A stretch of 53,298 bases of DNA from Nitrososphaeraceae archaeon (GTDB taxonomy: Archaea; Thermoproteota; Nitrososphaeria; Nitrososphaerales; Nitrososphaeraceae). The stretch lies in contig DATFEP010000059.1 in NCBI GenBank assembly GCA_035250975.1, positions 1-53,298 on the forward strand, in the 5' to 3' direction. The translations under genes and the position numbers were made by a program. Under the pieces are notes generated by a model. That model made no database searches and was not told where the DNA came from. It was given only the letters and a program-made list of their open reading frames with translations. This document shows, one piece after another, positions 5,459 to 21,937 of this stretch (positions are counted from its first letter, which is position 1; each line of letters opens with the position of its first letter).

Positions 5459-5609
5459 CATTGATTTTCATTATTAGCATTTAATTCAGAAAAGCAAAGT
5501 AATGGATATGATGATTTAATATTTCCCTTAATATAGCACTGCTAGTATATAGGATTCATTTCTTTTAACGCAAAATTGTTATTATATATAGTCACATCAT
5601 CATAAATAA

Positions 5610-5960
5610 TAGAATCAAAGATTTGTATCCAATTATATCCATGTAATAGATTACAATCCCATGTTCCTTTTTGCATAGAATGACAGTGTACCTCCGTCTG
5701 AATATGAATATACACTATTTTCCATTCTTTACAAGAGATCTGATAATATGCTCAGCTACAAACATCTATCTCTCTTTTGAAATCCATATTCCAACTGCAG
5801 ATTTTTGAACATTGATGTCTAACAATTTCAATTATAGTTTCATATATGATGAATGCTGGTACTCTTTTTCTTTTCTTTTGAAAATGGGATATTCTGCAAA
5901 TCTTTGAATCCAATTACATACATACAACCATGTAACTTGCATTATATTCATTTTTTAATG
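5610..5960 (-). mobile_element. Degraded IS6-family (DDE) transposase remnant
   Basis: Broken minus-strand frames give WIQRFAEY, PAFIIYET, GIWISKER*MFVAEHIIRSLV, SDGGT and CNLLHGYNWIQIF, which align with the better-preserved copy at 25870-26215. Confidence 0.7.
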
Positions 5961-6131
5961 GTTCCAATGCTTTGGTTGTATTATGTAAACTAACACCAGG
6001 CACGTACAAATAAAAAAAGAATATATTACTACAATAAGAGATATTCTTTCTTCGTTGAATAATCTAATGATCAGCATGGATTAGAAATAAGACATTAACA
6101 GCTAAATCTATATTTTAACTTCACAATCCAT

Positions 6132-6845
6132 CTAATGCTTTAGTAAATTTAAAATTTTATTATTTATCCAAAATCTATTAGTTATAGAAATTTGAATCTT
6201 GTCAGCATTTTCTGTTTCTATCTCATAATCATTTTGAGTAAGAGGATCGACTTTTATATGTTGTCTACTTTTTTCATTTACGGAAGGAATCGATATTTTA
6301 ATAATTTTTGACTCTTTGTTCTTATCAGATAAATGGTCCGATATTGATATATCTAATTCATGTTCAAAATTAGGAGCTTTTGATAAAAAGTGAGATAGAT
6401 GCCAGTCAGAATTTGTTCCGAAAAGATAGTATTCAAGATTTTCAGGGTAATCAGGACTATTTTTATTCAATTGTTTAAATAACAATATTTTCTTTATATT
6501 TACTCTAGTTTCACTTATTGGATTACCCGCAGGATCACCATTTTTATTAGCAAAATGAATTGGTCCAAAAAATGAACTAGAATTAGCAAGTTCTTCTAAA
6601 ATCATTGGTGATTTGTTTAATACAATAATGGGTTTAGCAGGATTTTTATTTTTTATCTTAAGGTAATTCTTCATTGCAGGTCCTTCAATTTCAGCTTCTA
6701 ATATTGTTTGAAAGGAATGGGCCGCCATATGATACATTGGCAAATGACACAAGTATAAATTCTTTGTACCCAACATTAGAAAGCCATGGGTAGCAACAAG
6801 ATTTTCATGTGAATGATGAGACATTAATTCAATTAAAGATTCCAA
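6132..6845 (-). CDS. Hypothetical protein (His-containing N-terminal motif)
   Basis: 237-aa ORF with HGFLMLG..LYLCHLPMYHMAAHSFQ; probable ATG start at 6824; no family recognised. Confidence 0.7.
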   Translation of the reverse strand: MESLIELMSHHSHENLVATHGFLMLGTKNLYLCHLPMYHMAAHSFQTILEAEIEGPAMKNYLKIKNKNPAKPIIVLNKSPMILEELANSSSFFGPIHFANKNGDPAGNPISETRVNIKKILLFKQLNKNSPDYPENLEYYLFGTNSDWHLSHFLSKAPNFEHELDISISDHLSDKNKESKIIKISIPSVNEKSRQHIKVDPLTQNDYEIETENADKIQISITNRFWINNKILNLLKH

Positions 6846-7239
6846 TTATAAAATATTTTTGGTTTGTAAATTTGTATTCAAAACACAAATACAAAAAATA
6901 CATTCCACCAAAGACGGATGATCTATTTCTTTCAAATCTAATTTTCATAAAATGAATACAATGTTCTTAGCTATATCTTTTACTGCTTAAATTAACAGAG
7001 CCCAAAAATGTAGATAATTCTTGTATTCTTTTTTGGCCGTATTTAACTACTTAGATTTATAAAATCTTTATAAATGTCATTATCCAAAAAAATTTATCAG
7101 AAATCAAATATCAAGTCATTTCAGTCAAATGTATTACTTGTAATGTTAATGAAATCAAATCATGAAGAAAATTTTTCTTTTCTAGTATAATGTACAACAA
7201 AAATATTCATGAATATGAGCTAGTAAATTATATAAGTTA

Positions 7240-8310
7240 ATGAAACAGGAATGTAACAAAGACTTGCCCAAAGATGAATCGCATATTGATCTAGAAAGAT
7301 CCTTTATGTCCGATCAAGTACGCTATTTACTTGTTATATATTTTATCTTATTAATATCAATATCAATTATTCTTTTAGTCTTAATTTGGAATCCTGTACA
7401 AGGTTCATTAACTGCAGTCAATTTTACTAATAGAACTATAATTGAACCTGATGGTAATACTACTACAATAACAACTAAAAATAGTAGTTCAAGCTCAGAA
7501 ATTAAAGAAATTAAATCAGTTAGAATAACTGCAGATAATAAGACCATTAGAGACGTGAATATGACGATCAAACCACTAACAGGTCAAGCATTTAAGACAG
7601 ATCCTGAAATTGTATTTTCAAATCCAGAGGTAAGACTAGTGATATTCGCTTCATTTTTCGGAATAATAGGAGCATCGATTCATGGAATAGGATCATTGAC
7701 TGAATGGATGAGTACAAGGAAGTTAGAAAGTGGATGGGCGATTTGGTATTTAACACGTCCAGCAATAGGAGCAGCTCTTGCCCTTATAACGTATATACTA
7801 CTGAGAGCAGGATTTGTGACTGGTGGCCCTACAGCAATCAGCGATTTTGGAGTAGCTGGACTTAGTGCTCTAGTAGGTTTAATGACAGATGAAATGACTA
7901 AAAAGTTAAGGGATGTTTTTGATACCTTATTTGGTATCCAAAAACCGGCAGAAGAAAAAGGAGAAGAGAAAGTTAAAAAGAATCTCTCAAGTATTTCATT
8001 TGCTAAAGATCAAAACACTCAGATAAAGGTCAATGAAGAAATAGAATTGAAGGCTAATGTAACTGACATTGATGGAAAACCTGCAGCTCAATCTAAGGTA
8101 CATTTTGTAAACAGTGATACAGATACATTGGAATTTATTGGTGTTACAGATAAAGGTACTGCCGATGTAACTACTACTCATGCAGGTGTTGCAAGTATCA
8201 AAATTAAAGGTATAAAACCAGGTATGTCTACAATTACTGCTTCTCACAAGGTAGTAGCCGGTGAAGAAGAAAAAGAAACTACTAAGAACATTACAATAGA
8301 AGTTATTTAA
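7240..8310 (+). CDS. Multi-pass membrane protein with C-terminal Ig-like (Big_1-type) domain
   Basis: About four hydrophobic segments, including GIIGASIHGIGS and WAIWYLTRPAIGAALA; the C-terminus ELKANVTDIDGKPAAQSKVHF..TTTHAGVASI..GMSTITAS resembles a bacterial Ig-like fold. Confidence 0.7.
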   Translation: MKQECNKDLPKDESHIDLERSFMSDQVRYLLVIYFILLISISIILLVLIWNPVQGSLTAVNFTNRTIIEPDGNTTTITTKNSSSSSEIKEIKSVRITADNKTIRDVNMTIKPLTGQAFKTDPEIVFSNPEVRLVIFASFFGIIGASIHGIGSLTEWMSTRKLESGWAIWYLTRPAIGAALALITYILLRAGFVTGGPTAISDFGVAGLSALVGLMTDEMTKKLRDVFDTLFGIQKPAEEKGEEKVKKNLSSISFAKDQNTQIKVNEEIELKANVTDIDGKPAAQSKVHFVNSDTDTLEFIGVTDKGTADVTTTHAGVASIKIKGIKPGMSTITASHKVVAGEEEKETTKNITIEVI

Positions 8311-8792
8311 AAAATAATTATTATAGTTAATATCTCTGATTAAAAGGATAAATCGTTACAGGAAAGTTTATAGAATATAATACATTTTGTTTATAAAAAA
8401 TCAATCAATTCTTTGGTTCATTTAAATAGTCAAATAATAATATAAAATTAATTTCTAATATTTTAGACAATGAAAAAACTAAAGTTACAATATACTACAT
8501 TTTCAAATTAAACTGGTCCCACTTTATAGAAGGGTTCAAATCCCACAGATTTAGCTGAATAACAATATTAAACCCATTTGATATTAGCTGGTCCCATGTC
8601 CAATCCTTATAATATTTTGATTTGAGTAACGTATTCAATATGTCTATTTAAGTATTGAGTCTATTTATTCAAATGGAGTAAACAGCTATTATTCCTTCAC
8701 AATAAACCGAACTTAAATTCCTAAAAAAATGATAATTGTTATTTTAGTTTTTATAACTTAAGAGCTAGAAAAGTTACAAAAAAATGAAGTAA

Positions 8793-10733
8793 TTATTTCT
8801 GCTTTTCGAGAACTAGAATGAGATTTTCAATTAACGGTAGTACTTTTTGTTGTGCTTGAGGATCTGTTATTAGATCATCTGCTGCCAATCCACCTAGCCT
8901 AGAATCCATTTTAGCCTTTAATTCATTTAATTGTATTATAGCTTCGTCTAATTTATCTGATTGAAGTAAATTTGCTAGGCTATCTGTTTTATTTTGTGGA
9001 TCTAAGATTAAACTATCTTTTAGTTTTTGTGCTTCTTGTGGCTGGTTAAATGCAGTATTTGGAAGAGAATTGATAGTATAGCTTATGCCTCTCAATAATT
9101 CCATTCTATGTTGTCTGATATCTTCTACAGTTAACTCTTCTATGATCTCAGATTGATTAGCTATTTTGGTTGGAGTTAAAGTAGTAACATTTCCAATTGT
9201 TAACTCTTGTGTCGGAATAGATTGATTAGCAATATTATTAGTAGTATTCTGAATCAATGAAGAATATACTTCTGACGAATTAATTAATGTAGGGGAGACG
9301 AAAGGTCCCGCTGGAGTAGATATATACACCAATTTCATCCAATCATCAAAACCCGTATATATTTGGTCTGGAGTAGGAGGACAATTATCGAGATTATTGA
9401 TATCTGACCTAACTGTATCTAAAGTATCTCCATCTAAGTTCCAATCTATTGGGTTTCCAGATATACCAAATCCTATGATAGGTGATGGACCATACACTGT
9501 TCTTAATTCTAATGGAATACTGGCTCCGATTCCCTTACTCTCAACTAAATTGCCTTCAAATAGGTTAAAAAAGTTTAGATATCGCGAATAATCTAAAGGT
9601 CTATCTCCAATGTAACTTGAAAACTGTCTCGTATAACTCATAACACTCAAATAATTCGGTTTACAATTTGTATGCTCATATCCGCCATGACGTAGGTTGA
9701 AATTATGTCCTAATTCATGCATAAATGTTCCTGCTTGTTGGTCTAGACTACCTACCGTATGACCAGTCATAGGATCTGTTCCCCATCCGGGGGAACCTAA
9801 TGTAACTAGAAATTCCATTGCTCCAAAACCGTTTGATACACCCGATGAACTAGTACCCGGTTGACTATGAGCAAAAACTCCATAATGATATACCAGCTGT
9901 TTTGCTTTAAGAATATTAATACGATCAATATTTAACTTCTCTTCAAGAGTACCAAAATTTGAACTTTTTATAGCTACAAGATTTGCAAGATTGGTGGTAT
10001 CTTGATGTGAAATTGTTTCGTCCACATCGACATGCAGATTAATTCCATTAATACCATCGGGGTTTGATACTGGTGAATTAGCAAAACTATCTACAACATC
10101 GGCAATAGCTCTTTTCTGTGGTTCGTGAAGAGACATAAAATCGACTTCTACATAGATATCTTTATGAAGAGGATTGGCATCACGAAGAATAAAATCAATC
10201 TTATTGTCATTATTTACGTCAATTCCATTCTGTTCCCATTTATTTAATAACCTATCTCCATCTTCATCACCATCAGGACGTAGTACAATTTTTCTCTCTA
10301 TACATAAGATTGTATAGTCTACATCAATGATTTCTAATGCAGCTCTATGTTCAGAAGTTATTGACAGTCCTAAGAAATTTAAAATGTTCTTCTTAATATC
10401 AGATACTTGTCTAGGGTTATCTAATACCTTTATATCCATTTCTGTATTAAATGGCTGTTGTATTTTGTTCGCGACCTGTTGGTTTATTATTTTGAAAATT
10501 ATTTTGTCCCAATGTTTAGTAGCGTCGTAATTATCACAGACACCTATCTCATTTGTTGCAGGTTGGCCATAACTATATGAAATATAGGTACACATTACTA
10601 TTAAGAATGCTAATAAAAGGATAAAAAATGGTACTTCATAATTAAATGCAATAACAGTTATATTTATCATTTTTGATTGATATTTAGGTAGTATCAAGTT
10701 ATGGAAATGACAGAGATATGGTCTGGAATTCAA
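8793..10733 (-). CDS. Exported zinc-metalloprotease-like protein with Ca-binding DxDxDG motifs
   Basis: N-terminal hydrophobic segment (probable ATG at 10670), DGDEDGDRLLNKWE, DANPLHKDIYVEVD, zinc motif FMHELGHNFNLRHGG and downstream NYLSVMSY (Met-turn-like). Confidence 0.75.
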   Translation of the reverse strand: MNSRPYLCHFHNLILPKYQSKMINITVIAFNYEVPFFILLLAFLIVMCTYISYSYGQPATNEIGVCDNYDATKHWDKIIFKIINQQVANKIQQPFNTEMDIKVLDNPRQVSDIKKNILNFLGLSITSEHRAALEIIDVDYTILCIERKIVLRPDGDEDGDRLLNKWEQNGIDVNNDNKIDFILRDANPLHKDIYVEVDFMSLHEPQKRAIADVVDSFANSPVSNPDGINGINLHVDVDETISHQDTTNLANLVAIKSSNFGTLEEKLNIDRINILKAKQLVYHYGVFAHSQPGTSSSGVSNGFGAMEFLVTLGSPGWGTDPMTGHTVGSLDQQAGTFMHELGHNFNLRHGGYEHTNCKPNYLSVMSYTRQFSSYIGDRPLDYSRYLNFFNLFEGNLVESKGIGASIPLELRTVYGPSPIIGFGISGNPIDWNLDGDTLDTVRSDINNLDNCPPTPDQIYTGFDDWMKLVYISTPAGPFVSPTLINSSEVYSSLIQNTTNNIANQSIPTQELTIGNVTTLTPTKIANQSEIIEELTVEDIRQHRMELLRGISYTINSLPNTAFNQPQEAQKLKDSLILDPQNKTDSLANLLQSDKLDEAIIQLNELKAKMDSRLGGLAADDLITDPQAQQKVLPLIENLILVLEKQK

Positions 10734-11462
10734 TTTTCGTAATGTATCAAGAGCAATATTACCATTTGTACAAAGTCATTTTGCAGTTTGGGAGTGATAT
10801 AAAGGTTCAATCCCAAACAAATCTATCTGTGTAAAAGAACATATGCATTTCTTATAGATAAAATTTTTGTAGACATGTTATCATCTATGATGACATTAAT
10901 TATAACTTTTGCTTTGTTGGATACATGTAAAAGTCTTTTCCTGTTATCTATTCTCTTGTCCAACTAGCAAACCCCTTCTTATGCAAAACATGTCTTACTA
11001 CCGCAGGTCTTGCCTCTTGAATGGGTGATATGTGTTAGCTGCTGTATATGTAGGCCCCAGAGCTCTAATACAAGTTTGCGGCTTTGTCTGGCTGACTGGT
11101 TGGTTGGGTGTTTACTGCAGTAATATTATCATAACAAAAAGAAAGTGAAACGGGCAATAAAAATAGTAGAATCAAAAAATAAAGTGAAAATAATAGAATA
11201 GAGTTATGAGCAATCTAATACATACTCTTTACTTGTATATAGCCTGTAGTCTAAATTGTTTTTATTATCTATTTCCATTTACAATATGATGTTTAGTCAC
11301 AAATGGTGTCGAACCTTTCTCAAACCCACTTGCAAAAACCTCATTAGATTTTAATCCAGTAGCTGAAATGATAATCATACGAATTCCTTTCTTTTTATTG
11401 TCATCAAATATGTCTTAATACTTTTTTGCTGTCTTACCATGAAAAGATGAAGGATAATATTT

Positions 11463-12737
11463 TTATGAAGTTTCTAATACCATTAAAGGATTTGAAATTT
11501 TTAATGAACCATTTAACTGTAAATAAAAATATCCAATTCCAGCCAATCCCAACATTAAACTAGGAGTTTCTCCTCCTTTCCTTATACCGCACGGCCATGG
11601 CAAACCCTTACTTACATATTTTTCAATTCCATAAAGTCCCACTTTCTCGGCCACCGATTTATATGCGCCATCTTTAAAGATACTATCTGCATAGAGTAAT
11701 GTTTCAGATATGCCCGATAAACCATGACACAAGGAAAAATCTATAAAATTGGGATTACTATTGCTATTTAATATTTGTTCTAGGTTCATAACTGATGTTT
11801 TTAAAGCAGCCTGAGAATCAACAAGATACTTTGTATCCTTTATCAAATCATATGCTCTTATGCGCGAAAGACCAATACCAGGTGCACCATGACACCAGGC
11901 GACAGCATAAGATAATTCCGACTTATTTGCAGCACCCTGACCATCTGAACGAAAATCAGGCCAATTGTTATTTTGTTCACTAAACCAATGATTTTCGTAT
12001 GAGAATGCATTATTAACGGCCTCAAGATATTTTGTATCTTTAGTAATATTGAATAATTCTAAGAGTGAATACCCAATCCCGGCTGCACCATGAGAAAATC
12101 CTGCTAGATTGTGGGAACATAATTTTACACCATTTGCTCTATAGTCCCATGACCATCCGTACGAATCTTTGGTTGCAGTTTCTATTAATTCATCTCCAAG
12201 CAGTACAGATAAATTCAGTATCTTCTCATCTTTATAGAAATCGTACAAATTAAGAAGAGCAGGAATACCACTTGCATTTCCTGATATAAAATCCATAAGG
12301 TGTTCCTTTTCAAAGTTGTCTTGTAACTCTCTTAAAATATCTAATGCTTTTTCAATGAAGATATTTCTATCGAGATTGTTTCCAATTTGTGTGCATACAT
12401 ATGCTATACCCAATTTTCCAGTAAAGACACTAAATCTAGAAGTACTAGATAACTCATTTACTTTTGATAATGCATGAATAATTGCACCTTCTGTAGTTTC
12501 TCGATAATCATCATTTTTTGTATAACGATAAAGTGTCGACAAGAAAAAAGCGATTCCAGCCGTACCATCATAAACATTGCAGCCAAGTGATTTGAGGTAT
12601 ATACTATGAACCATAGGTGCAATCTCTTGTATGGCCTTTCCAATCCAATTACATCTTTTTTCATGCCAAAAGGCAGTTTTACAAAGATGTATTCCGATTT
12701 TTTCAGCAGTATCTAAAAATATGTTATCGTAATTCAT
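11463..12737 (-). CDS. lanC: Lanthionine synthetase C-like cyclase (stand-alone LanC)
   Basis: Repeated GxxG motifs (YDGTAGI, FTGKLGI, ISGNASGI), GFSHGAAGIG (catalytic His), WCHGAPGIG and LCHGLSGI (Cys/Cys/His zinc ligands), LMLGLAGIG. ATG at 12737 lies 1 nt after the upstream stop (TAAAATG). Confidence 0.92.
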   Translation of the reverse strand: MNYDNIFLDTAEKIGIHLCKTAFWHEKRCNWIGKAIQEIAPMVHSIYLKSLGCNVYDGTAGIAFFLSTLYRYTKNDDYRETTEGAIIHALSKVNELSSTSRFSVFTGKLGIAYVCTQIGNNLDRNIFIEKALDILRELQDNFEKEHLMDFISGNASGIPALLNLYDFYKDEKILNLSVLLGDELIETATKDSYGWSWDYRANGVKLCSHNLAGFSHGAAGIGYSLLELFNITKDTKYLEAVNNAFSYENHWFSEQNNNWPDFRSDGQGAANKSELSYAVAWCHGAPGIGLSRIRAYDLIKDTKYLVDSQAALKTSVMNLEQILNSNSNPNFIDFSLCHGLSGISETLLYADSIFKDGAYKSVAEKVGLYGIEKYVSKGLPWPCGIRKGGETPSLMLGLAGIGYFYLQLNGSLKISNPLMVLETS

Positions 12738-12738
12738 T

Positions 12739-13797
12739 TTACTTACCAAAAACTGCATGTAAACTTTCATAATCATCTTTGGAATCCATATTTTTCAAAT
12801 ATGGCTTGTTAAAGTCGACATATTGAGTTTTAAAATACTTTTCCACTTGCTTAAATTTTTCTTCAGATGCAAAAACATTTTTTATATAAATATCGTATAT
12901 AGATTCTGCAAAAATTCTACATCGATTCTGTCCAAAACTCTCACTATTACTTGGATCTTCTGCTAACGATATTCCAGATGCAAGTTTCTTTGCAAAAAGA
13001 GGCACACTTGGTTTCAAGAATGATTTGATATTGTCATAAATTACCGAAAGTGATTTGCTCGCTTTTTTAACATCATTTTTATCTATATATAATACACCAG
13101 CATCCGCACGTGTATAAAGGTTCTCATCTTTTAAAATTTTAAATTGAAAAGGAATATTTTTGTTGTTTAGTTCGGTTGTTAAATACTTTACTAATGACAC
13201 AGCACCATCTGATGTTATATTCCAATATATCCTCACAACAAGAGACTCATAATTCATAGATATGTTACCATTAGCCATATAAAAACCGGGAAGTAATTCT
13301 CTGTATTCTTTTACCATAGCAGCATACCCTTTATCTCCCACACAGATTTGTTTACTATTTTGGGTTGCAAATTGATAAGGCATTACCCAAATTATTAGAT
13401 CATTTTTTTTAATTGCAATTTTACCATTCTTTTCCATCTTATGCACTATCCATCCTGGCTCCCAGGTCCCTATACCAGTATTTGCTTTAGAAAGTAATTC
13501 TATAAAATTTTCATCTCGATTTCCGTCATAAAAATTATTTCTATATGTTGACATCTGATCATCAAAAAATGTTTGGCGGCAATGAATTAGTTGATATAAA
13601 TAATTTCCAAGATGTGTGATTAAATTATTTTTCAAGTTTTTATTACTTTGATGCAAATTTTCTTCAGTAGTTTTTGATGTCTCATAAATTCGATCATTGA
13701 AAACAAATGAAGTATCGGATTTGATTTTAATATTCTTCAAAAGAAGTTCTATTTCTTTCACATAAGAAATCTGATTTTGAGGCATGAGTCTTCCCAT
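12739..13797 (-). CDS. HopA1-like protein, putative phosphoSer/Thr lyase (LanY-like)
   Basis: VRIYWNI, FQFKIL, YTRADAGVLY, PLFAKKLASGISLAEDP and ESFGQNRC match HopA1-family motifs; the start overlaps the kinase stop (TAATG at 13799-13795). Confidence 0.82.
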   Translation of the reverse strand: MGRLMPQNQISYVKEIELLLKNIKIKSDTSFVFNDRIYETSKTTEENLHQSNKNLKNNLITHLGNYLYQLIHCRQTFFDDQMSTYRNNFYDGNRDENFIELLSKANTGIGTWEPGWIVHKMEKNGKIAIKKNDLIIWVMPYQFATQNSKQICVGDKGYAAMVKEYRELLPGFYMANGNISMNYESLVVRIYWNITSDGAVSLVKYLTTELNNKNIPFQFKILKDENLYTRADAGVLYIDKNDVKKASKSLSVIYDNIKSFLKPSVPLFAKKLASGISLAEDPSNSESFGQNRCRIFAESIYDIYIKNVFASEEKFKQVEKYFKTQYVDFNKPYLKNMDSKDDYESLHAVFGK

Positions 13798-14939
13798 TAA
13801 AGCACAAGTTTAAAGGGAATTCCAAGTAAATGAATCGTAGCATTGTTGACGTTTAAAAATATGTTTAAGGCAATTTGTATCATATATACAGCTATATTAT
13901 TTAGTTCAGTTTGTGAATGCAGCATTTCGTAAGCACTTTGTATTAATCTTGCTGCGCAAAATTTTGTGGATTTTATTAACAAGTCATTAGTCTCTTTCGG
14001 ATTTCTTTGAATCACACGAATATATTCATTCCAAAAAATTCTCAATGCTGATTGCATGTTTTGTAAAGAATTCTTCGATAGATCTAATAATTTGTGAGGT
14101 GTTTCAGTTCCCGTTAACGGTAGAGTGTATAACCAGCATCTGATGAATTCTTGAAAGATTGATCCAATGTCCCATCCCGGGTCTCCGATACTTGCCATTT
14201 CCCAATCCGTGATTATATTTTCTTTTCTATTGTTCTTTAAATTGACTATAATATTGTCAAACTTTATGTCCCCATGAATCAAAGTTTTTGGATCCCAATT
14301 TGCAAAAAGCTCTTGAAGATTATCGTATATTTTTGGATCTTGTTGGACAATTTTTAATAGTTTCATATTTGCTTGACTAAGATTCACAAAAACTTCTGGT
14401 CCAGGATGAATTAACAGTTTTTCGAAGGTGAATGTTTTTGGTAAAAAATTTAATTTCTTATTTGTTATACACATTTTTTCAAAAACTTGATGATAAGTTG
14501 CGATTTTATTTCCTAAGGATGTTACTATGTCCTTATCAATTTTCATAGCTGGTTCTGTAAATATATATTGATTCCATGAATCTCCGGGCACAAATTCTGT
14601 CACCATTATATTATTATTTTCATCAAAATCACGTATTTTGGGTGCGATATGTGATATAGGACCAAATTCAGTTTCAGTTTGCATCATTGCATAAAGTAGC
14701 GATTCTCTTTTTATTGTAACACTGCTATGATTATCAGAAGGATTGGATTGTTTTAGAAAAAGATTCCAACCCGATTTGCTTAAGATTTTAATATTTTTAT
14801 TTTTTCTCGAAATGTCAAATATTTGCAAATCTCCATCAACAATTGATTCAACCTCTATTAACCCTTTATCTAAAAGATAATCAACTATATTATCCATGCC
14901 TATGATATGAATTCTAGCATCATTAGAAGCAATATTCAT
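13797..14939 (-). CDS. Aminoglycoside-phosphotransferase-fold kinase, putative peptide Ser/Thr kinase (LanK-like)
   Basis: LFLKQ (catalytic Lys), LIHGDIKFDNII (HGDxxxxN), ITDWEMASIGDPGWDIG. ATG at 14939 is 23-29 nt downstream of a TATA-like box. Confidence 0.88.
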   Translation of the reverse strand: MNIASNDARIHIIGMDNIVDYLLDKGLIEVESIVDGDLQIFDISRKNKNIKILSKSGWNLFLKQSNPSDNHSSVTIKRESLLYAMMQTETEFGPISHIAPKIRDFDENNNIMVTEFVPGDSWNQYIFTEPAMKIDKDIVTSLGNKIATYHQVFEKMCITNKKLNFLPKTFTFEKLLIHPGPEVFVNLSQANMKLLKIVQQDPKIYDNLQELFANWDPKTLIHGDIKFDNIIVNLKNNRKENIITDWEMASIGDPGWDIGSIFQEFIRCWLYTLPLTGTETPHKLLDLSKNSLQNMQSALRIFWNEYIRVIQRNPKETNDLLIKSTKFCAARLIQSAYEMLHSQTELNNIAVYMIQIALNIFLNVNNATIHLLGIPFKLVL

Positions 14940-14961
14940 GTTATAACACAAACTTTAATCG

Positions 14962-14968
14962 CAATATT
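14962..14968 (-). promoter_or_regulatory. Putative TATA box for the kinase-lyase-lanC transcript
   Basis: TTTAAAA on the minus strand 23-29 nt before ATG 14939 (leaderless archaeal spacing). Confidence 0.5.
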
Positions 14969-14984
14969 CACTTTTAAATAATCC

Positions 14985-14996
14985 AAAAAAAAGAAA
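14985..14996 (-). terminator. Putative oligo-T terminator after the precursor gene
   Basis: Minus strand reads TTTCTTTTTTTT about 45 nt after the precursor stop. Confidence 0.45.
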
Positions 14997-15038
14997 TGGT
15001 GTCATCGTAGTACGAATGAAATAACAATTATATCGAAT

Positions 15039-15821
15039 TTATTCTGCTTTCTCTTCCTCTAGTTTCTTTATTTTCTGTTTCAGTTTTTCCATCTGAGACC
15101 TTAGTTGCGTTATCGGATCAGTTCCTAAATCTGTTTCGACAGGACACTTTGGAGTAGTAGGGGGACAGTTGGCTTGGATAGTACAAATAATAATTGGTGT
15201 TGGACAGAATGGATTATTTCTTGATGGGCATTGTGGAGTTTCAGGTGGACATCGTGCTGTGACAGGACACTTTGGAGTAGTAGGGGGACAGTTGGCTTGG
15301 ATAGTACAAATAACAATTTGTGATGGACAGAATGGATCATATCTTGTTGGGCATTGTGGAGTGCATTGTGGAGTACAAATGACTGATGCGTGGTCGTCCG
15401 TCGGACAATATATTAGAGTTACTGGTATTAGTCCACGTTCAATAGCTTTTGAAACATATTCTGGGCTTAACTGCGCTCTTGCAATTTCTCCTTCCATAAA
15501 CCTCGCCTGTTGTTTTTCAGAATCTATCTTTACTTTGGTCAGTTCAGCATCCTTTCTTACCCAAATACAAGTCCCACCAAATTCTAATTCTTCTTCTGAT
15601 AGTTCTTCTGCATGTAATATGTCGTTCTTTTTGACCTGTATATACTCATTAAATTGTTTATTTAGATATAATCGTACCACTTCATCGGAGTCTGATTTGC
15701 CTACATATCCTTTAATACATAAATAGTCTACGGGCTGTCCATCTTTTACTAATTTTTTTGATAACTCATGTTCTCGCAAAGGATCTTTATCTGATGGTTT
15801 TTGATCCTTGTTTGTCGACAT
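15039..15821 (-). CDS. Putative RiPP (lanthipeptide-like) precursor: about 130-aa leader, Cys/Thr/Pro-rich repetitive core, coiled-coil tail
   Basis: aa 135-228 contain 14 Cys and 17 Ser/Thr in (S/T)x2-5C units; lies directly upstream of kinase, lyase and LanC on the same strand. Confidence 0.8.
   Translation of the reverse strand: MSTNKDQKPSDKDPLREHELSKKLVKDGQPVDYLCIKGYVGKSDSDEVVRLYLNKQFNEYIQVKKNDILHAEELSEEELEFGGTCIWVRKDAELTKVKIDSEKQQARFMEGEIARAQLSPEYVSKAIERGLIPVTLIYCPTDDHASVICTPQCTPQCPTRYDPFCPSQIVICTIQANCPPTTPKCPVTARCPPETPQCPSRNNPFCPTPIIICTIQANCPPTTPKCPVETDLGTDPITQLRSQMEKLKQKIKKLEEEKAE
15138..15362 (-). repeat. Intragenic duplication in the precursor core (123-bp period)
   Basis: aa 154-187 and aa 195-228 are near-identical; 53 bp are identical at 15138-15190 and 15261-15313. 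Confidence 0.95.
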
Positions 15822-15841
15822 TATATTTTAATGCAACCAGC

Positions 15842-15850
15842 TATTTAAAA
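15842..15850 (-). promoter_or_regulatory. Putative TATA box of the precursor gene
   Basis: TTTTAAATA on the minus strand 21-29 nt upstream of ATG 15821. Confidence 0.55.
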
Positions 15851-15927
15851 GGATATTGATTGTAATATATTGATCATTACCATGTAGGTTTGCTCTTTAT
15901 ACGTATGACGTAATCTATTTCTAATTT

Positions 15928-15950
15928 TTTGAAATATCAGATATTTCAAA
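15928..15950. promoter_or_regulatory. Perfect 11-bp inverted repeat with 1-nt spacer, candidate operator
   Basis: TTTGAAATATC-A-GATATTTCAAA, about 80 nt upstream of the precursor TATA box. Confidence 0.4.
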
Positions 15951-16479
15951 CAATAATTTAATTGCTTTAAGATATTTAATTAGAGTTTTACCAGAAAAAT
16001 CTTTTTTTATCTAGTATTTATCAATAAAACAATTTTAAAATGTTTTAAATGTCCAATTTCATTGATTTTTTTTTCATTAGTATGTTAAATATTGTTCTAT
16101 TCTGTCCCGACTTATTTTTAAAAAGTCAAAAAAACATTTCAGACTTTTACTTTATTTCTAAGTGGCAGGAGACTACATAGTATACAAAATCAAAGATATA
16201 AGCGACATTATTCAGATTATTATTTACTTGAAAATCATGAATGTACTATTATCATTTTTCATTTTTTATTACAAGTCAGCTAAATGATTTTTCATTCTTC
16301 AGTTTAATTATTTTTATATTCTAAAATGTTACCACAAACTATAAAAATTTACACTTAACCACATTAAAGTAGTTTTGTTGATAAATAATTATTTTTTTAA
16401 ATAATATTAAATCATTAATAAAGTTTTAAATGTATAAAAATTAATTCTAATTTTCTATTTTATGGCAAGAACAAACAAG

Positions 16480-16600
16480 TGACTTGTTATTGTATTGTTA
16501 TACATAAAAACAAATATTTGTATTCAGTTATGTACATGAAATAAATTACATTTATCTTGTATACATGGATAGTAGTCATGAAAGCTTTAGATTCTGATTT
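16480..16600 (-). mobile_element. IS6-family transposase 3' fragment
   Basis: Minus strand reads SFHDYYPCIQDKCNLFHVHN*IQIFVFMYNNTI, matching the C-terminus of the 25870-26215 copy. Confidence 0.7.
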
Positions 16601-17145
16601 AGATTCGTTAAATTTTCAAAATTTATTAAATAAAAATTCGTTGAATAGTCTCTTCAAGTTATTCCCCCAATTGGGGGCATGCTTCATCTTCATCTTCAAG
16701 TTGGTCAAATTTTTTTATTCGTAAATAAATAAATACGGTGCAGAAAACCTAAATAAATTTATTTTTTTTAGAGGAGTAATTCGGTTTAACACATGGTAAA
16801 TAGAATTTCATTATTTTGTTTTAGCTTAGAAAGGGTATGTATGTTCCATGGTGAGAGTCAAACACAAGAGAAAAGATGGTTATTGGTTGTATTACCATCC
16901 AGCATATACTCTATCTAGAACGTGATACGGTCATTGGAAATATAGATTATGATGTTAAGGAAAATCCTACTATATGTTCAAAGAATGTCAGGAACAGCAG
17001 CGGCAGAGAAAGAAAATCAGTTTATTCAATGGAGAAATTCGATTGTCCCTGTATTTTGATGGTTTTATTTGGTTTGACCTACCGTGATATGAGGAATACA
17101 GTATCATCATGATCGACTGTTCTTAATCATTTAATTTTTATTTAG

Positions 17146-18051
17146 TCAGTTAGGTGCGCTAATTTTTATAAAATTTTTAAAATCATATTCTTCACTATTT
17201 CCGTTATTTGTAATATATAATACATGATTTTCAGGAGAAAAATTATCTATTCCTGTTATATCCAATTCGGTTTCAAATTTTTTTAGTACAGATAAAATAA
17301 CTTGATAGTCTATTCTAGTCATATCTCGAATTGTTGCACCTTCGCCAACGGTAGTACCTTGAGGAGAATAAATAGCGCCACCAACCATCCCAGGACCAAA
17401 GGATTTTCCTGGTGCTCCCAAATTTAATAATACTCCGCCTGACATGTACAAACCTGAATTATATCCTGCGCCAAACGTTACCAAGCTCCCTCCTCTAGCT
17501 TGACCCATAGCTCTTTCCATACATCCCTTTCTGACCAGAATATCAACACCATCACTATCTTCTCTCGCCTGATTGTTCTGTCCTGCTAGCTCTGTAGCAA
17601 AACCATCAACAACAATTTTACCAGCATAACCCTTATCAGCCAATCCATTTTCAGAATGACCTTGTACTGTCCACGTTCCATCAAAATTACAACCAGCTGC
17701 AAAAAAATTTCCAACGCTCCCCTCGACAATTAAATCTAGTTTTATTGGTTCTCTGAAACTGAGAATTCCAATTCTATAAAGTGCTTTAGGATTTTTTATA
17801 GTAATTTTATTTTCGCCTTCGATTATTTTCCGTTTTAGAATAGAATTTACTGCTCTTTCGTATACCAATGGCGAACTTATAATATCCTTAAACTTTTCTA
17901 AAGACGCCTTCTTTAGTCCTTTAGGGAGATCTATTCTATATTTTTTATATAACATAAGATTTAGCCGTTCAAATTGTTCATCTGGATTTGATGTCTTAGA
18001 CCCTATAGAGTCCGCAATGGATCTTATTTCATCAATATCTAGAATATACAA
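17146..18051 (-). CDS. Glutamate synthase GXGXG beta-helix domain subunit (GltB3-like)
   Basis: Gly-rich repeats VEGSVGNFFAAG, GQARGG, AGYNSGLYMSGG and FGPGMVGGAIY; lies downstream of the other gltB pieces. Confidence 0.8.
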   Translation of the reverse strand: MYILDIDEIRSIADSIGSKTSNPDEQFERLNLMLYKKYRIDLPKGLKKASLEKFKDIISSPLVYERAVNSILKRKIIEGENKITIKNPKALYRIGILSFREPIKLDLIVEGSVGNFFAAGCNFDGTWTVQGHSENGLADKGYAGKIVVDGFATELAGQNNQAREDSDGVDILVRKGCMERAMGQARGGSLVTFGAGYNSGLYMSGGVLLNLGAPGKSFGPGMVGGAIYSPQGTTVGEGATIRDMTRIDYQVILSVLKKFETELDITGIDNFSPENHVLYITNNGNSEEYDFKNFIKISAPN

Positions 18052-18264
18052 TATATTTTATCTCGAATATTTAGCAAGGTTACTGATATATCTTTTATTC
18101 TATTAACACAAAATGATAAAGTCGTATATGCACACATTTTTAAAAAGTGTAGAAAATTGATATTTTTTATTCATCATAAATAAATCAAAATAGATTTTAA
18201 AAGAGCATCAATATTTTATTAATAATTTAATTAAAAATTTGAATTTGAAAAATAAATTATTGAT

Positions 18265-19170
18265 TTAATTAGCAATAGATCTGATTTTCATCTGGTTGTA
18301 AAATATTTTTGGTTTTCCAGGTTGCGGAGTTTCTACGTAATATGTTGCTCCCACAGAATCCAAAGCAGATAAATCAGTCGCCATCGCCCAGAAAGATGGA
18401 TAGTCTTTACTGCCTGGATTATATCCGAAAATAGCTTTTCTTGCTCCAAATTTGTCTCTAACCAAGGCAAGAGAATCCGGTGTAGCAACTATATATGTAA
18501 AAGGGCCATCTGCTTTCTTTATAAATTCATAATTTGCCTTTTCTATATTGCCATGTCTCAAAATTTGATCTGCAATAAATACAGCAATGACCTCCGAGTC
18601 ACATCTAGTAAAGAAACGATATCCTTTAAGCTCAAGTGAAGATCTTAATCTGGAATAATTTGTTATTTCCCCATTATGTACCACAGCAATATCAGGCATC
18701 ACTGTAGTACTGAATGGATGTGCATGGTCTGGAGTGACTCTACTGCTTGTGGCTATCCTCAAATGACCTATCCCATGTGTTCCCTGAATTGACTTGATGT
18801 CATATTTTGAATCAAGATCTCTTACGAGTCCCACATCTTTTAAAAGGTTCATATCTTTTGCAAAACTTGCTATTACGGCTTTGGGATCTTGATTTAATTC
18901 ATGCAAAGTTTCAGCTAATCTCTCGCTAGGTACTTTTTGTGTAAAGAGATTGAATATACTGTCATTATGTCTCACAGGGAACTTTGTCCCTGTAATTTTT
19001 CTATAGTAATCTATTCTGTAATACTCTTTGTTTGTTTCTTTATTGAAGATGGCTACACCTGTACTATCCTGAGCTCTTATCTGCTGGCTCTCCATCATTT
19101 TATATAGAAGACAGCCAATAGGAAAATCATTTTTGCAATTTTCCAACATAACGGCACATATTCCACACAT
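18265..19170 (-). CDS. Class II glutamine amidotransferase, glutamate synthase domain 1 (GltB1-like)
   Basis: N-terminal MCGI (Ntn nucleophile Cys), GIGHLRIAT, HAHPF, VHNGEITNY, CDSEV. Confidence 0.88.
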   Translation of the reverse strand: MCGICAVMLENCKNDFPIGCLLYKMMESQQIRAQDSTGVAIFNKETNKEYYRIDYYRKITGTKFPVRHNDSIFNLFTQKVPSERLAETLHELNQDPKAVIASFAKDMNLLKDVGLVRDLDSKYDIKSIQGTHGIGHLRIATSSRVTPDHAHPFSTTVMPDIAVVHNGEITNYSRLRSSLELKGYRFFTRCDSEVIAVFIADQILRHGNIEKANYEFIKKADGPFTYIVATPDSLALVRDKFGARKAIFGYNPGSKDYPSFWAMATDLSALDSVGATYYVETPQPGKPKIFYNQMKIRSIAN

Positions 19171-19173
19171 ATT

Positions 19174-20364
19174 TTATTCTCCTACCACCGACTTGATAAT
19201 CTCTTGAGTTTCTGACGAATTCATGTGCATTCCGTTTTCACTAACATACTCATCAATTACTTCCTCTATTATCTCCAGATAAGTTCTATCGATTCCCTCA
19301 AGTAGTATATTTCCTTGCAAGCTTGCATCTATACTGGATGTACGCAAATCGGATGGAGATAGATTATGAAAATCACTATATCCCAAGGCAGCAGGGATTC
19401 CCCTAATTTCTCCCTTTGTTCCTATCATATGACGGTAAACATTTTCTGCAATCGAGATGACGTCCAAAGGCTTTTCCGAGTAAATATGAGAATTTGCTAT
19501 CAACATGCTTGTAGAATATCCTACAACATCTGCACCAAGTGCTGCTGCCTTTACGATCTTGCCGGCACTGTTTACATCACCTGCAATCACTAATATTGCA
19601 TTATCACCACTTTCCTCTTTCCCTTTATAATAATGATTTATAGCATTCCTTGCATCACAAATTACTGCTATTGCATGTTTTCCCTTGTATCTTACACTTT
19701 TCGTTACCTTTTCTGTATCAAGTATAATTCCATCTGCTTTTGAATCCAATATTGAATTAAAACACAATGGAAAAACATCACTGACATCTACCAATATAGG
19801 GCCGTCAAAATCCTCTCGTAGACTCTTGAGTATCTTCAAAGAAGATTCATCTTTATATTCTAACACCAGTCCTTCTGCTGCAGAGAGTTGTTTATAATCC
19901 ATTAAACTATCTTGCAAAGAAGATTCTGGATAGAACGATATTTTTTTGAATAAGGGATATTTTCTTTTATCTCGCTGTATATTTACTTCTGTTTCTAAAT
20001 CTAAAATTAACCCCAATACATTCCCTTCTTCAGCTAGCCGGTTTAAGGCAAGATGTACAGATTCGAGGGAATGAGAATCCATAGTAATATTTCCATAAAT
20101 TATCAAAGGTATGTTCAAAACAACTTTTCTAGACTTTCCTCTTCCTATAGATATGTCTAGGTTTACAGTTTCTCTGTAAGGATCATATGGCGGTCTTGAA
20201 AGTTGTGCTCCTATCGCAGTTACATAATCCCATAGATTTATTGCTTTGAAATTTATTTCATGAGTCTTTCTAACCTCATCATCTATTGAAGTAGAACGTG
20301 GCTTACCTGTCTTTGCAAGCTCCAACACAGCTTTTCTAATGATAAATTTATCTGCATCATTCAA
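19174..20364 (-). CDS. Degenerate glutamate synthase FMN-barrel paralogue (GltB2-like, no Fe-S motif)
   Basis: AQLSRPPYDPYRE, LVIAGDV..AGKIVKAAALGADVVG and LSPSDLR resemble the GltB FMN domain, but the CX5CX4C and KIGQGAK motifs are absent. Confidence 0.7.
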   Translation of the reverse strand: MNDADKFIIRKAVLELAKTGKPRSTSIDDEVRKTHEINFKAINLWDYVTAIGAQLSRPPYDPYRETVNLDISIGRGKSRKVVLNIPLIIYGNITMDSHSLESVHLALNRLAEEGNVLGLILDLETEVNIQRDKRKYPLFKKISFYPESSLQDSLMDYKQLSAAEGLVLEYKDESSLKILKSLREDFDGPILVDVSDVFPLCFNSILDSKADGIILDTEKVTKSVRYKGKHAIAVICDARNAINHYYKGKEESGDNAILVIAGDVNSAGKIVKAAALGADVVGYSTSMLIANSHIYSEKPLDVISIAENVYRHMIGTKGEIRGIPAALGYSDFHNLSPSDLRTSSIDASLQGNILLEGIDRTYLEIIEEVIDEYVSENGMHMNSSETQEIIKSVVGE

Positions 20365-20406
20365 GACGATTTATCCTCCAACAATTATTGTCGGGTCCAA
20401 AACCTC

Positions 20407-21897
20407 TCAATTACTTTCTCTCCTTCCTTCTATTCTACTATCAATAGCTGTTTTTACCCTTGCCTTTACCAAATCTTTAAAAGTTTCGCCGCCAGCTAAT
20501 GGCAATCCGCTAATCATGCCGGACAACTCGTCTGTTGCAACAAGATCCTCTTTCCTAAGATCATGAATACTTTTTCTTCCTAGGGAACCAGCAATGTTTT
20601 TTAGTTCAAATAAAGTTCCTTTAACATAATTTACTATTCCAGTTACACTTGTCTCTATGTCCAATTTTTCATATGATCCAGTCAAGCCTGCTGGACATGA
20701 ATTTGTATAACAATCTTGCACAAGAGTACATCCCATTGAAAGGAGAAAACCTGTTCCTATACCTACACCATTAGCACCTAATGCAATACATTTAGCAATT
20801 CTTTCTGAATCCCATACACTACCATGAACGATTAATCTGAATTGATCCCTTTCTTCAGGTAAATAATAATCTTCAATCGCTTCTCTCGAAGGCACAAGAG
20901 ATGGTATTATATTTATTCCAATGGTATCTCGAAGTTCCCAAGGAGCAGCACCAGTTCCTCCTACAAAACCATCAATGGAAGCTGCATCTGCATATGATTT
21001 GAGAATTATTTCAATATCATCATATACGCGAGAACATCCAACCTTTACAATTATAGGCTTTTGCCAATCCGTAATTTCTCGAAGCTCCAGAACCTTTGCC
21101 ACCAAGTCTTCAGGTCCCAAAATATCAAGATGTCTTGATGGTGAATGTGCTGCCTTGTAAGATGGAATTCCCCTATTCTCTGCAACCAGATCTGTTACCT
21201 TTGGACCCGGTAATAATCCCCCATGACCTATCTTTGCGCCCTGACCAATCTTTATTTCTATGGCGTCGGCGTTCAATAGATAACTTGGATCTTTCCAGAA
21301 TCTTCCCGAAGCATACTGAGTAACCAATGGATATAAACGAGAAAAAAGGAGATCCCTGTCTATTGACTCTAGATTGTGCTCTTTCAATAATCGATCAGCA
21401 TAGTCCAGGATACTCTCACGTCTTTTTTTGGAAACATATGACCAAGATTCTTCGGAGCCGTACAGTTCCCACGGTAACGCTCCACCCTCTCCAGTATTCA
21501 TTATCATGTTTATCCCTTCTTTAGCAAGCCTGTTTAACGCAAGATGCAGTGCTATTTTAGCAGGAAGTTTTAATGAGCCATAGCTCATCCCAGAAACAAA
21601 AAATGGCACATTAGTAGTTATAACATTGCTAGAATATCTTCCTCCCAATGTGAAGGTAGTATCAATGTCATTGTATCTGACATCATCTCCTTTGGGTCTT
21701 ATCTCTGCTCCAATTATCTTGATAGAAGGAAAATAATCGTTCGGAGAACGTGCTCCTAGACCAGAATATGGAATCTCTGAATCGGTTACTTTTCTTACCT
21801 CAACAATCAGTTTATTTAGATCAAAATAGCTGCTGGATGATTCTGCAGCTTTCAAAATGTGTCTTTTTAGATCTAGAACATCTTTTGAATATGGCAT
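20407..21897 (-). CDS. gltB: FMN-binding glutamate synthase subunit (GltB2)
   Basis: SGMSYGSL, NTGEGG, QYASGRF, IEIKIGQGAKIGHGGLLPGPKV, HSPSRHLDI, GGTGAAP, and the [3Fe-4S] motif CTLVQDCYTNSCPAG. Confidence 0.92.
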   Translation of the reverse strand: MPYSKDVLDLKRHILKAAESSSSYFDLNKLIVEVRKVTDSEIPYSGLGARSPNDYFPSIKIIGAEIRPKGDDVRYNDIDTTFTLGGRYSSNVITTNVPFFVSGMSYGSLKLPAKIALHLALNRLAKEGINMIMNTGEGGALPWELYGSEESWSYVSKKRRESILDYADRLLKEHNLESIDRDLLFSRLYPLVTQYASGRFWKDPSYLLNADAIEIKIGQGAKIGHGGLLPGPKVTDLVAENRGIPSYKAAHSPSRHLDILGPEDLVAKVLELREITDWQKPIIVKVGCSRVYDDIEIILKSYADAASIDGFVGGTGAAPWELRDTIGINIIPSLVPSREAIEDYYLPEERDQFRLIVHGSVWDSERIAKCIALGANGVGIGTGFLLSMGCTLVQDCYTNSCPAGLTGSYEKLDIETSVTGIVNYVKGTLFELKNIAGSLGRKSIHDLRKEDLVATDELSGMISGLPLAGGETFKDLVKARVKTAIDSRIEGRRESN

Positions 21898-21937
21898 GAT
21901 AATTATCCAACTCTAAATGAAATATAGCAAGTGACTA

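Follow-up and report, generated by a model that had tools for sequence, protein, structure and literature searches.

A probable class Vb-type lanthionine synthetase cassette with a protein-sized candidate precursor in an ammonia-oxidizing archaeon

Introduction

A contig of 53,298 nucleotides (nt) assigned to a Nitrososphaeraceae archaeon (GenBank assembly GCA_035250975.1, contig DATFEP010000059.1; this entire stretch is called the window below) raises the question of whether an ammonia-oxidizing archaeon encodes its own pathway for thioether cross-links and, if it does, what the substrate might be. On the minus strand, from 15821 to 11463, the open reading frame (ORF) listing gives four co-oriented genes, for a Cys-rich protein of 260 amino acids (aa), a kinase, a lyase, and a cyclase (Table 1). 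We consider it likely that these genes form a class Vb-type lanthionine synthetase cassette that acts on a protein-sized precursor. The enzyme architecture is already known from bacteria, and the candidate precursor and the host are what set this locus apart.

An initial annotation of this DNA had described the co-orientation of the genes, the tight coupling of the three enzyme genes through TAATG and TAAAATG, and the retention of catalytic motifs, all of which were confirmed in the sequence. The stop codon of the kinase gene and the start codon of the lyase gene overlap within TAATG, with base 13797 common to both. At the next junction, TAAAATG leaves one base between the lyase stop and the ATG of LanC. 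Because this junction follows the lyase stop, translation of LanC is likely to begin at 12737 (424 aa) and not at 12776, where the ORF as listed begins (12776..11463, 437 aa). The kinase ORF is given from a TTG in Table 1; an alternative ATG at 14939 is the likely start and would yield 380 aa. The T-rich run that separates the precursor stop from the kinase start may be an oligo-T terminator or attenuator of the archaeal type.

Table 1. Positions of the cassette, the surrounding island, and related features. Coordinates refer to the window unless a locus is named.
Feature	Positions	Strand	Remarks
Candidate precursor/substrate protein	15039..15821	-	260 aa; ORF without Pfam or NCBIfam family
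Internal core duplication	15138..15362	-	two 102-nt copies, repeat search
T-rich run TTTCTTTTTTTT, including 8-T run	14985..14996	-	between precursor stop and kinase start
LanK-type Ser/Thr kinase, aminoglycoside-phosphotransferase fold	13797..14951	-	384 aa from TTG; PF01636
LanY-type phospho-Ser/Thr lyase, HopA1 family	12739..13797	-	352 aa; PF17914
Standalone Zn-type LanC cyclase	11463..12737	-	424 aa; PF05147
Variable island, cassette and three other ORFs	5688..17108	.	11.4 kb; no counterpart at syntenic site in same-genus genome G016
HerA/DUF87 ATPase-domain gene	2957..5458	+	833 aa
Repeat element, copy just outside left island border	5609..5683
Repeat element, copy inside right island border	16498..16583		about 525 nt inside the border
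Island ORF	6132..6845	-
Island ORF	7240..8310	+
Metalloprotease-like gene	8793..10733	-	646 aa
GXGXG gene	17146..18051
Glutamate-synthase-like run	17146..23452		GXGXG, GATase, Glu_synthase
Segment of about 2.4 kb within that run	19504..21900		no counterpart at collinear G016 site
Small peptide, locus L006	6625..6828	-
Small peptide, locus L007	12566..12736	+
Small peptide, locus L008	4698..4868	+
Small peptide, locus L009	3707..3862	+
Small peptide, locus L009	5306..5506	+

Three enzymes of a putative thioether-forming pathway

Each enzyme of the cassette belongs to a recognizable family. In searches with Pfam models, the kinase matches APH (aminoglycoside phosphotransferase; PF01636) with an E-value of 2.2e-12 and 47.7 bits (cut-off 23.2), the lyase matches HopA1 (PF17914) at 2.9e-40 and 138.4 bits (cut-off 22.7), and the cyclase matches LANC_like (PF05147) at 3.7e-66 and 223.6 bits (cut-off 23.2). 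All three families that the initial annotation had named for these genes are matched above their cut-offs, and the cyclase gene is the sole LANC_like match in the source genome.

The residues expected to carry out catalysis are also retained. Among 28 aligned kinases, K63, D224, and D245 (in DWE) are invariant, and H222 and N229 of the HGDxxxxN motif are nearly so. All 24 aligned cyclase domains preserve the His of SHG, the Cys of WCHG, and the Cys-His of CHG. The zinc ligands and kinase motifs are named here after those in the structures of NisC and of APH enzymes. The LanC motifs align with those of LicM2 (PDB 6st5), whose cyclase domain is the best solved relative (E 7.7e-25).

For the lyase, R189, K220, R230, and Y237 are invariant in all five aligned sequences. 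Their spacing agrees within one residue with that of R187, K219, R229, and Y236 of CaoY, to which they would correspond; the CaoY residues are described as important by mutagenesis in the portions of PMC9486802 that treat them. With families and motifs intact, the sequence supports the proposal of the initial annotation that kinase, lyase, and zinc-dependent cyclase could together constitute a complete thioether pathway.

Assignment to class Vb

Class V lanthipeptide systems are defined, in excerpts of two articles, by a standalone LanK of family PF01636 and a standalone LanY of family PF17914 (PMC10604976, PMC11186320). Class Vb is described as class V with a dedicated LanC, for which mSmoA/SmoC from Streptomyces was the sole characterized member in 2024; the relevant passages report LanC-directed cyclization for this class and cite Pei et al., JACS 2022 (PMC11186320, PMC12291118, PMC12328550). 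The cassette has the same composition. Its PF01636 kinase stands alone, its PF17914 lyase stands alone directly beside it at the TAATG junction, and a dedicated PF05147 LanC lies in the cluster.

Other classes agree less well with what the locus encodes. Only one APH-family gene is present, and no LanD or LanX family occurs among the island ORFs, whereas class Va would have a LanD decarboxylase and, as LanX, a second protein of the kinase fold. The LanC protein scores 285.9 bits against the class II LanM model TIGR03897, below the cut-off of 304, and its 424 aa cover only model positions 543-930 of 932, the cyclase end. The models for classes III and IV likewise match in their cyclase part only and fall far short (LanL NF038150, 108.6 versus 650 bits; LanKC, 67 versus 575 bits; both NCBIfam). 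For class I, no LanB family was found among the island ORFs scanned, the rest of the source genome not having been searched for LanB.

These results bear on three statements of the initial annotation. Its observation that LanB, LanM, a fused LanKC/LanL, LanD, and a methyltransferase are absent holds for the 11.4-kb island, where none was found. Its conclusion that the pathway fits none of classes I-V is refuted, because LanK, LanY, and LanC together are what the articles cited above call class Vb. Its phrase "split synthetase" describes what is the norm of the class, standalone enzymes, and does not imply the division of a fused one.

A family of protein-sized candidate precursors

The product of the first gene consists of three parts. 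Residues ~1-130 form a conserved N-terminal region, the putative recognition ("leader") domain, residues 131-235 a hypervariable core, and residues 236-259 a conserved Lys/Glu-rich helix. Within the core are 14 Cys, 19 Ser/Thr, and 22 Pro, and a direct repeat of 102 nt (94% identity) occupies 15138-15239 and 15261-15362, with the copies offset by 123 nt. These residue counts and the repeat bear out the earlier description of a repetitive, Cys/Thr-rich core. For each of these 14 Cys, a Ser/Thr can be found 3-6 residues upstream without leaving the inter-Cys segment to which that Cys belongs.

A large protein database holds 27 close relatives of the precursor, with 37-98% identity, all unnamed. 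In an alignment of 21 of them, a strongly conserved N-terminal domain and a strongly conserved C-terminal helix flank a core that varies in length and repeats, and the duplicated 102-nt module of the window reflects core growth. The C-terminal helix is a feature of this close subfamily and is lacking in bacterial members. Homology between the precursor and its bacterial counterparts is limited to the N-terminal ~115 residues, after which comes a variable stretch rich in Cys, Pro, Ser, and Thr. No curated precursor model, such as those for the long-leader NHLP or Nif11-type families, nor any other Pfam or NCBIfam model, is matched by any of 21 family members at E <= 0.01.

Searched with a profile of the N-terminal domain, cluster representatives at 50% identity gave 3,146 matches at E <= 0.001, of which 1,986 reach E <= 1e-10, and in the proteins found the domain is nearly always N-terminal. 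The 150 best-scoring representatives range from 112 to 614 aa in total length. After the domain, 143 of these 150 have at least two Cys, 128 at least four, and 60 at least ten; six have none, and the maximum is 58. In the same set, the position following Cys is Pro in 39% of cases, the second position is Ser/Thr in 44%, and Cys-Cys spacing peaks at 7. Ser/Thr is present in 1,407 of 1,485 inter-Cys segments (95%), compared with 68.0 ± 0.9% (maximum 70.4%) in 500 shuffles that kept Cys positions. The family thus shows the arrangement by which precursors of RiPPs (peptides made ribosomally and then modified post-translationally) are recognized: a conserved recognition region and a variable core rich in target residues, encoded beside the enzymes.

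Recurrence of the cassette and its precursor

The lyase alignment, used to scan genomes of species representatives, retrieved 30 loci, of which four are archaeal (Nitrososphaeraceae) and 26 are bacterial. The bacterial loci come mostly from Solirubrobacterales and other Actinomycetota, with further examples in Chloroflexota, Acidobacteriota, Latescibacterota, and one alphaproteobacterial bin. Because the gene set recurs in 26 bacterial loci and in four other loci of Nitrososphaeraceae, its association is more than chance. Of the 29 uncut loci, all of which have LanC, 18 encode lyase and cyclase as two genes and 11 as a fusion. One of the 11 fusions, from a Chloroflexia metagenome-assembled genome (MAG; L028, 7539-10106), has its LanC part spread over three reading frames, which may reflect frameshift or assembly errors.

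In 23 of the 26 bacterial loci, a precursor homologue detected by BLASTP with the 260-aa protein lies 7-172 nt upstream of the kinase gene, and in three loci homologues occur as a tandem pair. Two of the three bacterial loci without a homologue (L017 and L037) end at a contig edge; the third (L036) does not. An all-against-all comparison of 31 loci gave no conserved family beyond kinase, lyase/LanC, and precursor. Additional "clusters" from this comparison were rejected as shadow ORFs of high-GC genes.

The association was also examined in reverse, beginning with the leader domain. All leader-domain matches in three bacterial genomes lie at the cassette. Among 201 genomes of one bacterial order, six have a leader-domain match, and four of these six lie beside LanK/LanY, three of the four with LanC. 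Two are known cassettes, one is a kinase-lyase-LanC locus with the domain gene downstream, and one is a kinase-lyase locus, also with the domain gene downstream, in which LanC was undetected. The association of leader domain and cassette is strong but not absolute.

Two loci from Solirubrobacterales-order genomes, L056 (G840:C14) and L059 (G795:C30), differ in gene order, with a distant leader-domain gene downstream of the enzymes and not upstream. L056 carries a kinase, a lyase, and the leader-domain gene, and is the one in which LanC went undetected.

Two architectures in one archaeal family

HopA1 genes are rare in the archaeal family of the host: 4 of 61 relatives have one, as do 6 of the 238 species representatives of Nitrososphaeraceae, the source genome included. 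In three of these genomes (G012, G015, and G035), the gene after the kinase encodes lyase and cyclase as one fused protein of 764-797 aa. They share with the window the archaeal family, the three catalytic domains, and a kinase directly upstream. They differ from the window in their fused enzymes and small precursors, and enzyme identity to the window is ~29-39%. Near the fused loci are peptides of 51-67 aa that share the leader motif FLKG..VS..L.GT and end in cores with 1-5 Cys; probably these represent ordinary, small precursors of the class Vb type. All four archaeal loci (L006-L009) also conserve a secreted SnoaL-like protein of 166-185 aa.

The form seen in the window is found again on metagenome contigs. 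Four low-GC contigs carry the close precursor subfamily. One (L042) has the complete cassette with lyase and cyclase separate, two (L043 and L044) have the precursor and enzymes up to the contig ends, and the fourth has the precursor only. Enzymes on L042, L043, and L044 are 59-68% identical to those of the window and contain no internal stops. Since the same split genes appear on these contigs, the three-protein form is conserved and no artefact. A 348-aa protein that flanks the cassette on L042 gave one weak match among 41 genomes and no other relative. In a profile search, no other member of the window's N-terminal domain was found in 238 Nitrososphaeraceae genomes or in a 401-genome sample of the phylum.

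A leader predicted to fold and to dock on the kinase

The leader of this precursor is modelled as a folded domain. An AlphaFold2 model built with the family alignment has a six-stranded beta domain followed by helices, with predicted local distance difference test (pLDDT) values >90 for residues 31-105 and 95 for the C-terminal helix. Comparison of the N-terminal domain with the PDB (VIA) gave a best Z of 3.5 (root-mean-square deviation 5.4, 65 residues aligned) and weak rows for Hfq/SH3-like small beta-barrels at Z ~3. Its neighbours in the ESM Atlas are unnamed hypothetical proteins only.

When kinase, lyase, and N-terminal domain were modelled as a complex, the score was 0.75, and the best of three controls reached 0.00. 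A mark of 0.75 is attained by 58 of 80 solved complexes and by 2 of 110 mismatched pairs, a calibration that is only rough here because custom alignments and three chains were used. Between runs, at least 73% of contacts coincide, and the pLDDT of the partner is 73 or more. On the side of the N-terminal domain, the modelled contacts involve residues 38-42 and 101-120, which are the family's most conserved motifs; on the kinase side they involve residues 276-304 and 345-380 of the C-terminal lobe. The model supports binding of the N-terminal domain to the kinase. Such a contact would be in line with the recognition of leader by kinase proposed for CaoA and CaoK in the pertinent portions of PMC9486802.

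The upstream placement of the gene relative to the kinase, shared by 23 of the 26 bacterial loci, the statistics of inter-Cys segments, the pairing of a conserved domain with a hypervariable core, and the predicted docking together make the 260-aa protein a likely substrate of the enzymes. The same evidence bears on a different explanation, in which the protein is an accessory factor (metal-binding, disulfide-rich, or a scaffold) and the enzymes modify some other, unrecognized peptide. Cys/Pro-rich repeats do occur in metal-binding proteins, and the short precursors at the other Nitrososphaeraceae loci indicate that such enzymes can serve short peptides. However, a metal binder would have no need for the excess of Ser/Thr between Cys residues over the shuffled sequences, and both the position upstream of the kinase, typical of RiPP precursors, and the modelled docking on the kinase also argue for a substrate. 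The small precursor that this explanation might call for was also sought: in the source genome, a regular expression for the relatives' type of peptide gave no match, and a hidden Markov model from five such peptides gave a best E-value of 1.4 over 47,102 ORFs. We therefore regard an accessory role as quite unlikely.

From genes to product

If the protein is the substrate, a sequence of events can be proposed for the class Vb-type cassette. The folded N-terminal domain of ~120 aa would dock on the C-terminal lobe of the APH-type LanK, which would phosphorylate Ser/Thr in the core, rich in C-P-[S/T]. LanY would then, probably while bound to LanK, eliminate phosphate to leave dehydroalanine or dehydrobutyrine, and the zinc-dependent LanC would add each Cys thiol to a dehydro residue. 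The predicted product is a string of up to 14 consecutive, mostly methyllanthionine rings along a Pro-rich segment. This is the simplest product because a Ser/Thr precedes each core Cys by 3-6 residues.

Several observations weigh against this reading. The nearest NCBIfam model to the kinase, LxmK (NF038156), is matched with 93.8 bits (E 1.1e-26), under its 315-bit cut-off, so the enzyme is a distant relative of the characterized class V kinases and no equivalog. Across the 31 loci, the cassette has no conserved companion gene for a protease, a transporter, or immunity, and without a conserved protease or transporter a classical leader-cleaved, secreted lantibiotic is unsupported. Two of the six leader-domain matches in the reverse comparison, the weakest ones, have no LanK, LanY, or LanC within 6-7 kb, so the leader domain is not exclusive to the cassette context. 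For the core, the structure model indicates disorder (pLDDT ~41) and does not inform the ring pattern, and the complex model provides a confidence score rather than a measurement.

One tentative, rather doubtful extension of the class Vb-type reading is that, instead of a small lantibiotic for secretion, the cassette makes a protein-sized "thioether ladder". The beta domain and helix would stay attached to a Pro-rich rod with ~14 lanthionine or methyllanthionine, (Me)Lan, rings (up to ~58 in bacterial relatives), and the molecule would have a structural, adhesive, or protective role in or on the cell. Were this so, LanK, LanY, and LanC would represent a widespread protein cross-linking system, with 3,146 precursor clusters, and not an antibiotic pathway, and its hypervariable cores would diversify through repeat duplication.

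The chemistry could also end short of lanthionine or depart from it, with dehydro residues kept, an external thiol added as by eukaryotic LanC-like proteins, or other cross-links formed. Class Va rings can arise spontaneously without LanC, as stated in an excerpt of PMC11186320. The glutathione transferases LANCL1/2 are among the solved relatives of LanC (E 1e-9 to 3e-12), and L056 combines kinase, lyase, and leader-domain gene with no LanC detected. Nevertheless, the best solved relative is a LanM cyclase domain, that of LicM2, and the C-terminal part of LanM is also what the protein comes nearest to among NCBIfam models (285.9 bits). In addition, the number and spacing of core Cys fit the supply of Ser/Thr, and every uncut locus retains LanC. 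We give this outcome little weight compared with lanthionine formation by the class Vb-type cassette.

Host genome and island

The source genome (G000; 91 contigs, 2.62% estimated contamination) has an archaeal amoA gene (E 1.1e-118), which lies on a different contig. The cassette lies in a variable island (Table 1) whose flanks match a single locus (L041) of the same-genus genome G016 by blastn: window 2675-5687 matches L041 10860-7856 at 90%, and window 17109-19503 matches L041 7679-5230 at 93%. The two flank blocks are 177 nt apart in G016, and the site is otherwise collinear at 90-94% nucleotide identity. The adjacent GXGXG gene has 94% protein identity in G016 and 73-87% full-length identity in 12 other same-genus genomes. 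GC content is 0.326 for the cassette and 0.316 for the rest of the window, compared with 0.55-0.72 for the bacterial homologous loci. Judged from amoA, the collinear flanks, and the low, genome-like GC, the cassette is archaeal, resides in a variable region, and is no recent unameliorated import.

In kinase trees, the window and three metagenome contigs form a clade with 100% support on a stem of 1.79. Its placement as sister to the clade of fused archaeal enzymes is weak (89), and all low-GC rows were flagged for composition bias. Neither donor nor direction of transfer is named.

Traces of the cassette also appear in sequencing runs. DNA runs from three other studies, two of them soil metagenomes and the third labelled with an organism code, contain contigs of at least 85% likeness that together span most of the cassette. 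In one soil metatranscriptome run, two contigs with 95-99% likeness cover 15185-15810 of the precursor gene, a presence in an RNA library that is no more than a hint of transcription. None of the three enzyme genes is covered by contigs of the same RNA run (X20), and contigs of this kind cannot show absence or expression level.

These data make it very unlikely that we are dealing with a relic, left inactive in an island gained by horizontal transfer. Such a fate might be suspected because the island is missing from G016, because the precursor type is unique among 238 Nitrososphaeraceae species representatives, and because the kinase clade sits on its long stem. However, the four ORFs are intact with invariant catalytic residues, the cassette has the GC of its surroundings rather than that of the bacterial loci, and relatives at 59-68% identity keep their genes open, in addition to the presence of the precursor gene in the RNA library. 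That the contig is a bacterial contaminant or chimeric assembly is hardly credible, despite the number of contigs and the estimated contamination of the assembly and the mostly bacterial homologues, because both flanks are collinear with one G016 locus, the GXGXG neighbour is shared within the genus, GC is low and genome-like, and other Nitrososphaeraceae MAGs carry related LanK/LanY-LanC loci.

Several further features of the island and its borders were noted. A repeat element with a core of ~45 nt (~85% identity) occurs near each border, and at least five other contigs of the source genome have copies (77-81% identity), with no tRNA or Rfam match. Its depth in three other DNA runs is 89-184, compared with ~5 elsewhere. 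The element could be similar to a miniature inverted-repeat transposable element (MITE) or could be a recombination site of the island, in or near which no tRNA genes or Rfam families were found. The HerA/DUF87 ATPase-domain gene that abuts the island on its left is kept in G016.

Among the other island ORFs, the metalloprotease-like gene, which follows LanC downstream in the same orientation, has an N-terminal hydrophobic segment, an HExxH zinc-protease motif, and weak Reprolysin-type matches under the cut-off. It was rejected as a part of the cassette, being present in 1 of 30 relatives (41% identity) and having nothing similar among the ORFs of L042. Of the remaining two island ORFs, one has no family and the other a weak Big_1 (bacterial Ig-like) match under the cut-off. 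Beyond the right border, the ~2.4-kb segment that G016 lacks inside the glutamate-synthase-like run could reflect an indel or, alternatively, paralogues collapsed in the alignment.

Significance

These findings place a LanK/LanY/LanC system in soil ammonia oxidizers, a group of global importance for nitrification. A single archaeal family holds two architectures, one of fused enzymes with small peptides and another of split enzymes with a giant precursor. The leader of the latter is, by structure prediction, a folded domain and not a short peptide. The members of the precursor family exposed here, with 112-614 aa and up to 58 Cys among the best 150 representatives, far exceed in length the short precursors of the lanthipeptide articles consulted. 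RiPPER looks for short ORFs, and short-peptide searches would probably overlook such precursors. If the rings do form, cross-linking would be far heavier than in mSmoA, and the system would offer a test bed for how kinase, lyase, and cyclase process tens of sites processively.

Comparison with known systems

The enzyme trio was encountered in bacteria before. In the main text of Eyles et al. (2021, PMC8153245), HopA1 is reported near or fused to LanC in 20% of 1,340 bacterial HopA1 proteins, and HopA1-LanC is proposed as an uncharacterized lanthionine synthetase; our literature search found the term "HopA1-LanC" only in that article. The reservation in the initial annotation that bacteria might already show this architecture was therefore well placed. 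The bacterial clusters share the trio in split and fused forms. They differ, as far as the main-text description allows comparison, in belonging to bacterial phyla and in having short peptides (Families 11/20 and 22).

Class Vb, represented by SmoA from Streptomyces, is the closest characterized system. Both have a standalone LanK, a standalone LanY, and a dedicated LanC, and both lack LanD, LanX, LanB, and LanM. Class Vb products contain (Me)Lan only, as would the product predicted here. In contrast to SmoA, the present system has an ammonia-oxidizing archaeon as host and a 260-aa precursor with a folded N-terminal domain of ~120 aa, 14 core Cys, and a C-terminal helix. The comparison with SmoA draws on the rings described for mSmoA in an excerpt of PMC11186320, two overlapping (Me)Lan rings and one C-terminal Lan, and does not extend to the N-terminal domain.

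Class Va (CaoK/CaoY of cacaoidin, lexapeptide, pristinin) shares phosphorylation and elimination by LanK and LanY with leader recognition by the kinase; according to excerpts of PMC9486802, CaoK/CaoY dehydration was reconstituted in vitro, and leader recognition was proposed. Unlike the cassette, class Va is described in part of PMC12291118 as having LanD and LanX, aminovinyl-methylcysteine (AviMeCys), and no LanC, whereas the island has no LanD, LanX, or reductase. Class IV LanL resembles the cassette in combining kinase, phospho-lyase, and Zn-type LanC chemistry. There, one polypeptide unites these activities, its kinase being of family PF00069 and its lyase of the OspF type, whereas three proteins of other families are used here.

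The host, the two architectures in one archaeal family, and a protein-sized precursor family with a predicted folded leader appear new as far as the literature was searched, with the proviso that supplements of published surveys may bear on the precursor family. A search of literature titles gave no lanthipeptide cluster for Thaumarchaeota or Nitrososphaer-, and survey supplements may list such clusters. Known archaeal lanthipeptides, as the initial annotation had correctly stated, are class II LanM products, confined to Haloarchaea in the available portions of two archaeal RiPP surveys, which mention there neither class V nor Nitroso- taxa (PMC12144867, PMC10105419). The archalans and other archaeal class II systems share with the cassette an archaeal host and a cyclase of the LanC fold. 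They pair LanM with short precursors in Halobacteria, as those surveys describe them, whereas the cassette described here combines LanK, LanY, and LanC in the Nitrososphaeraceae.

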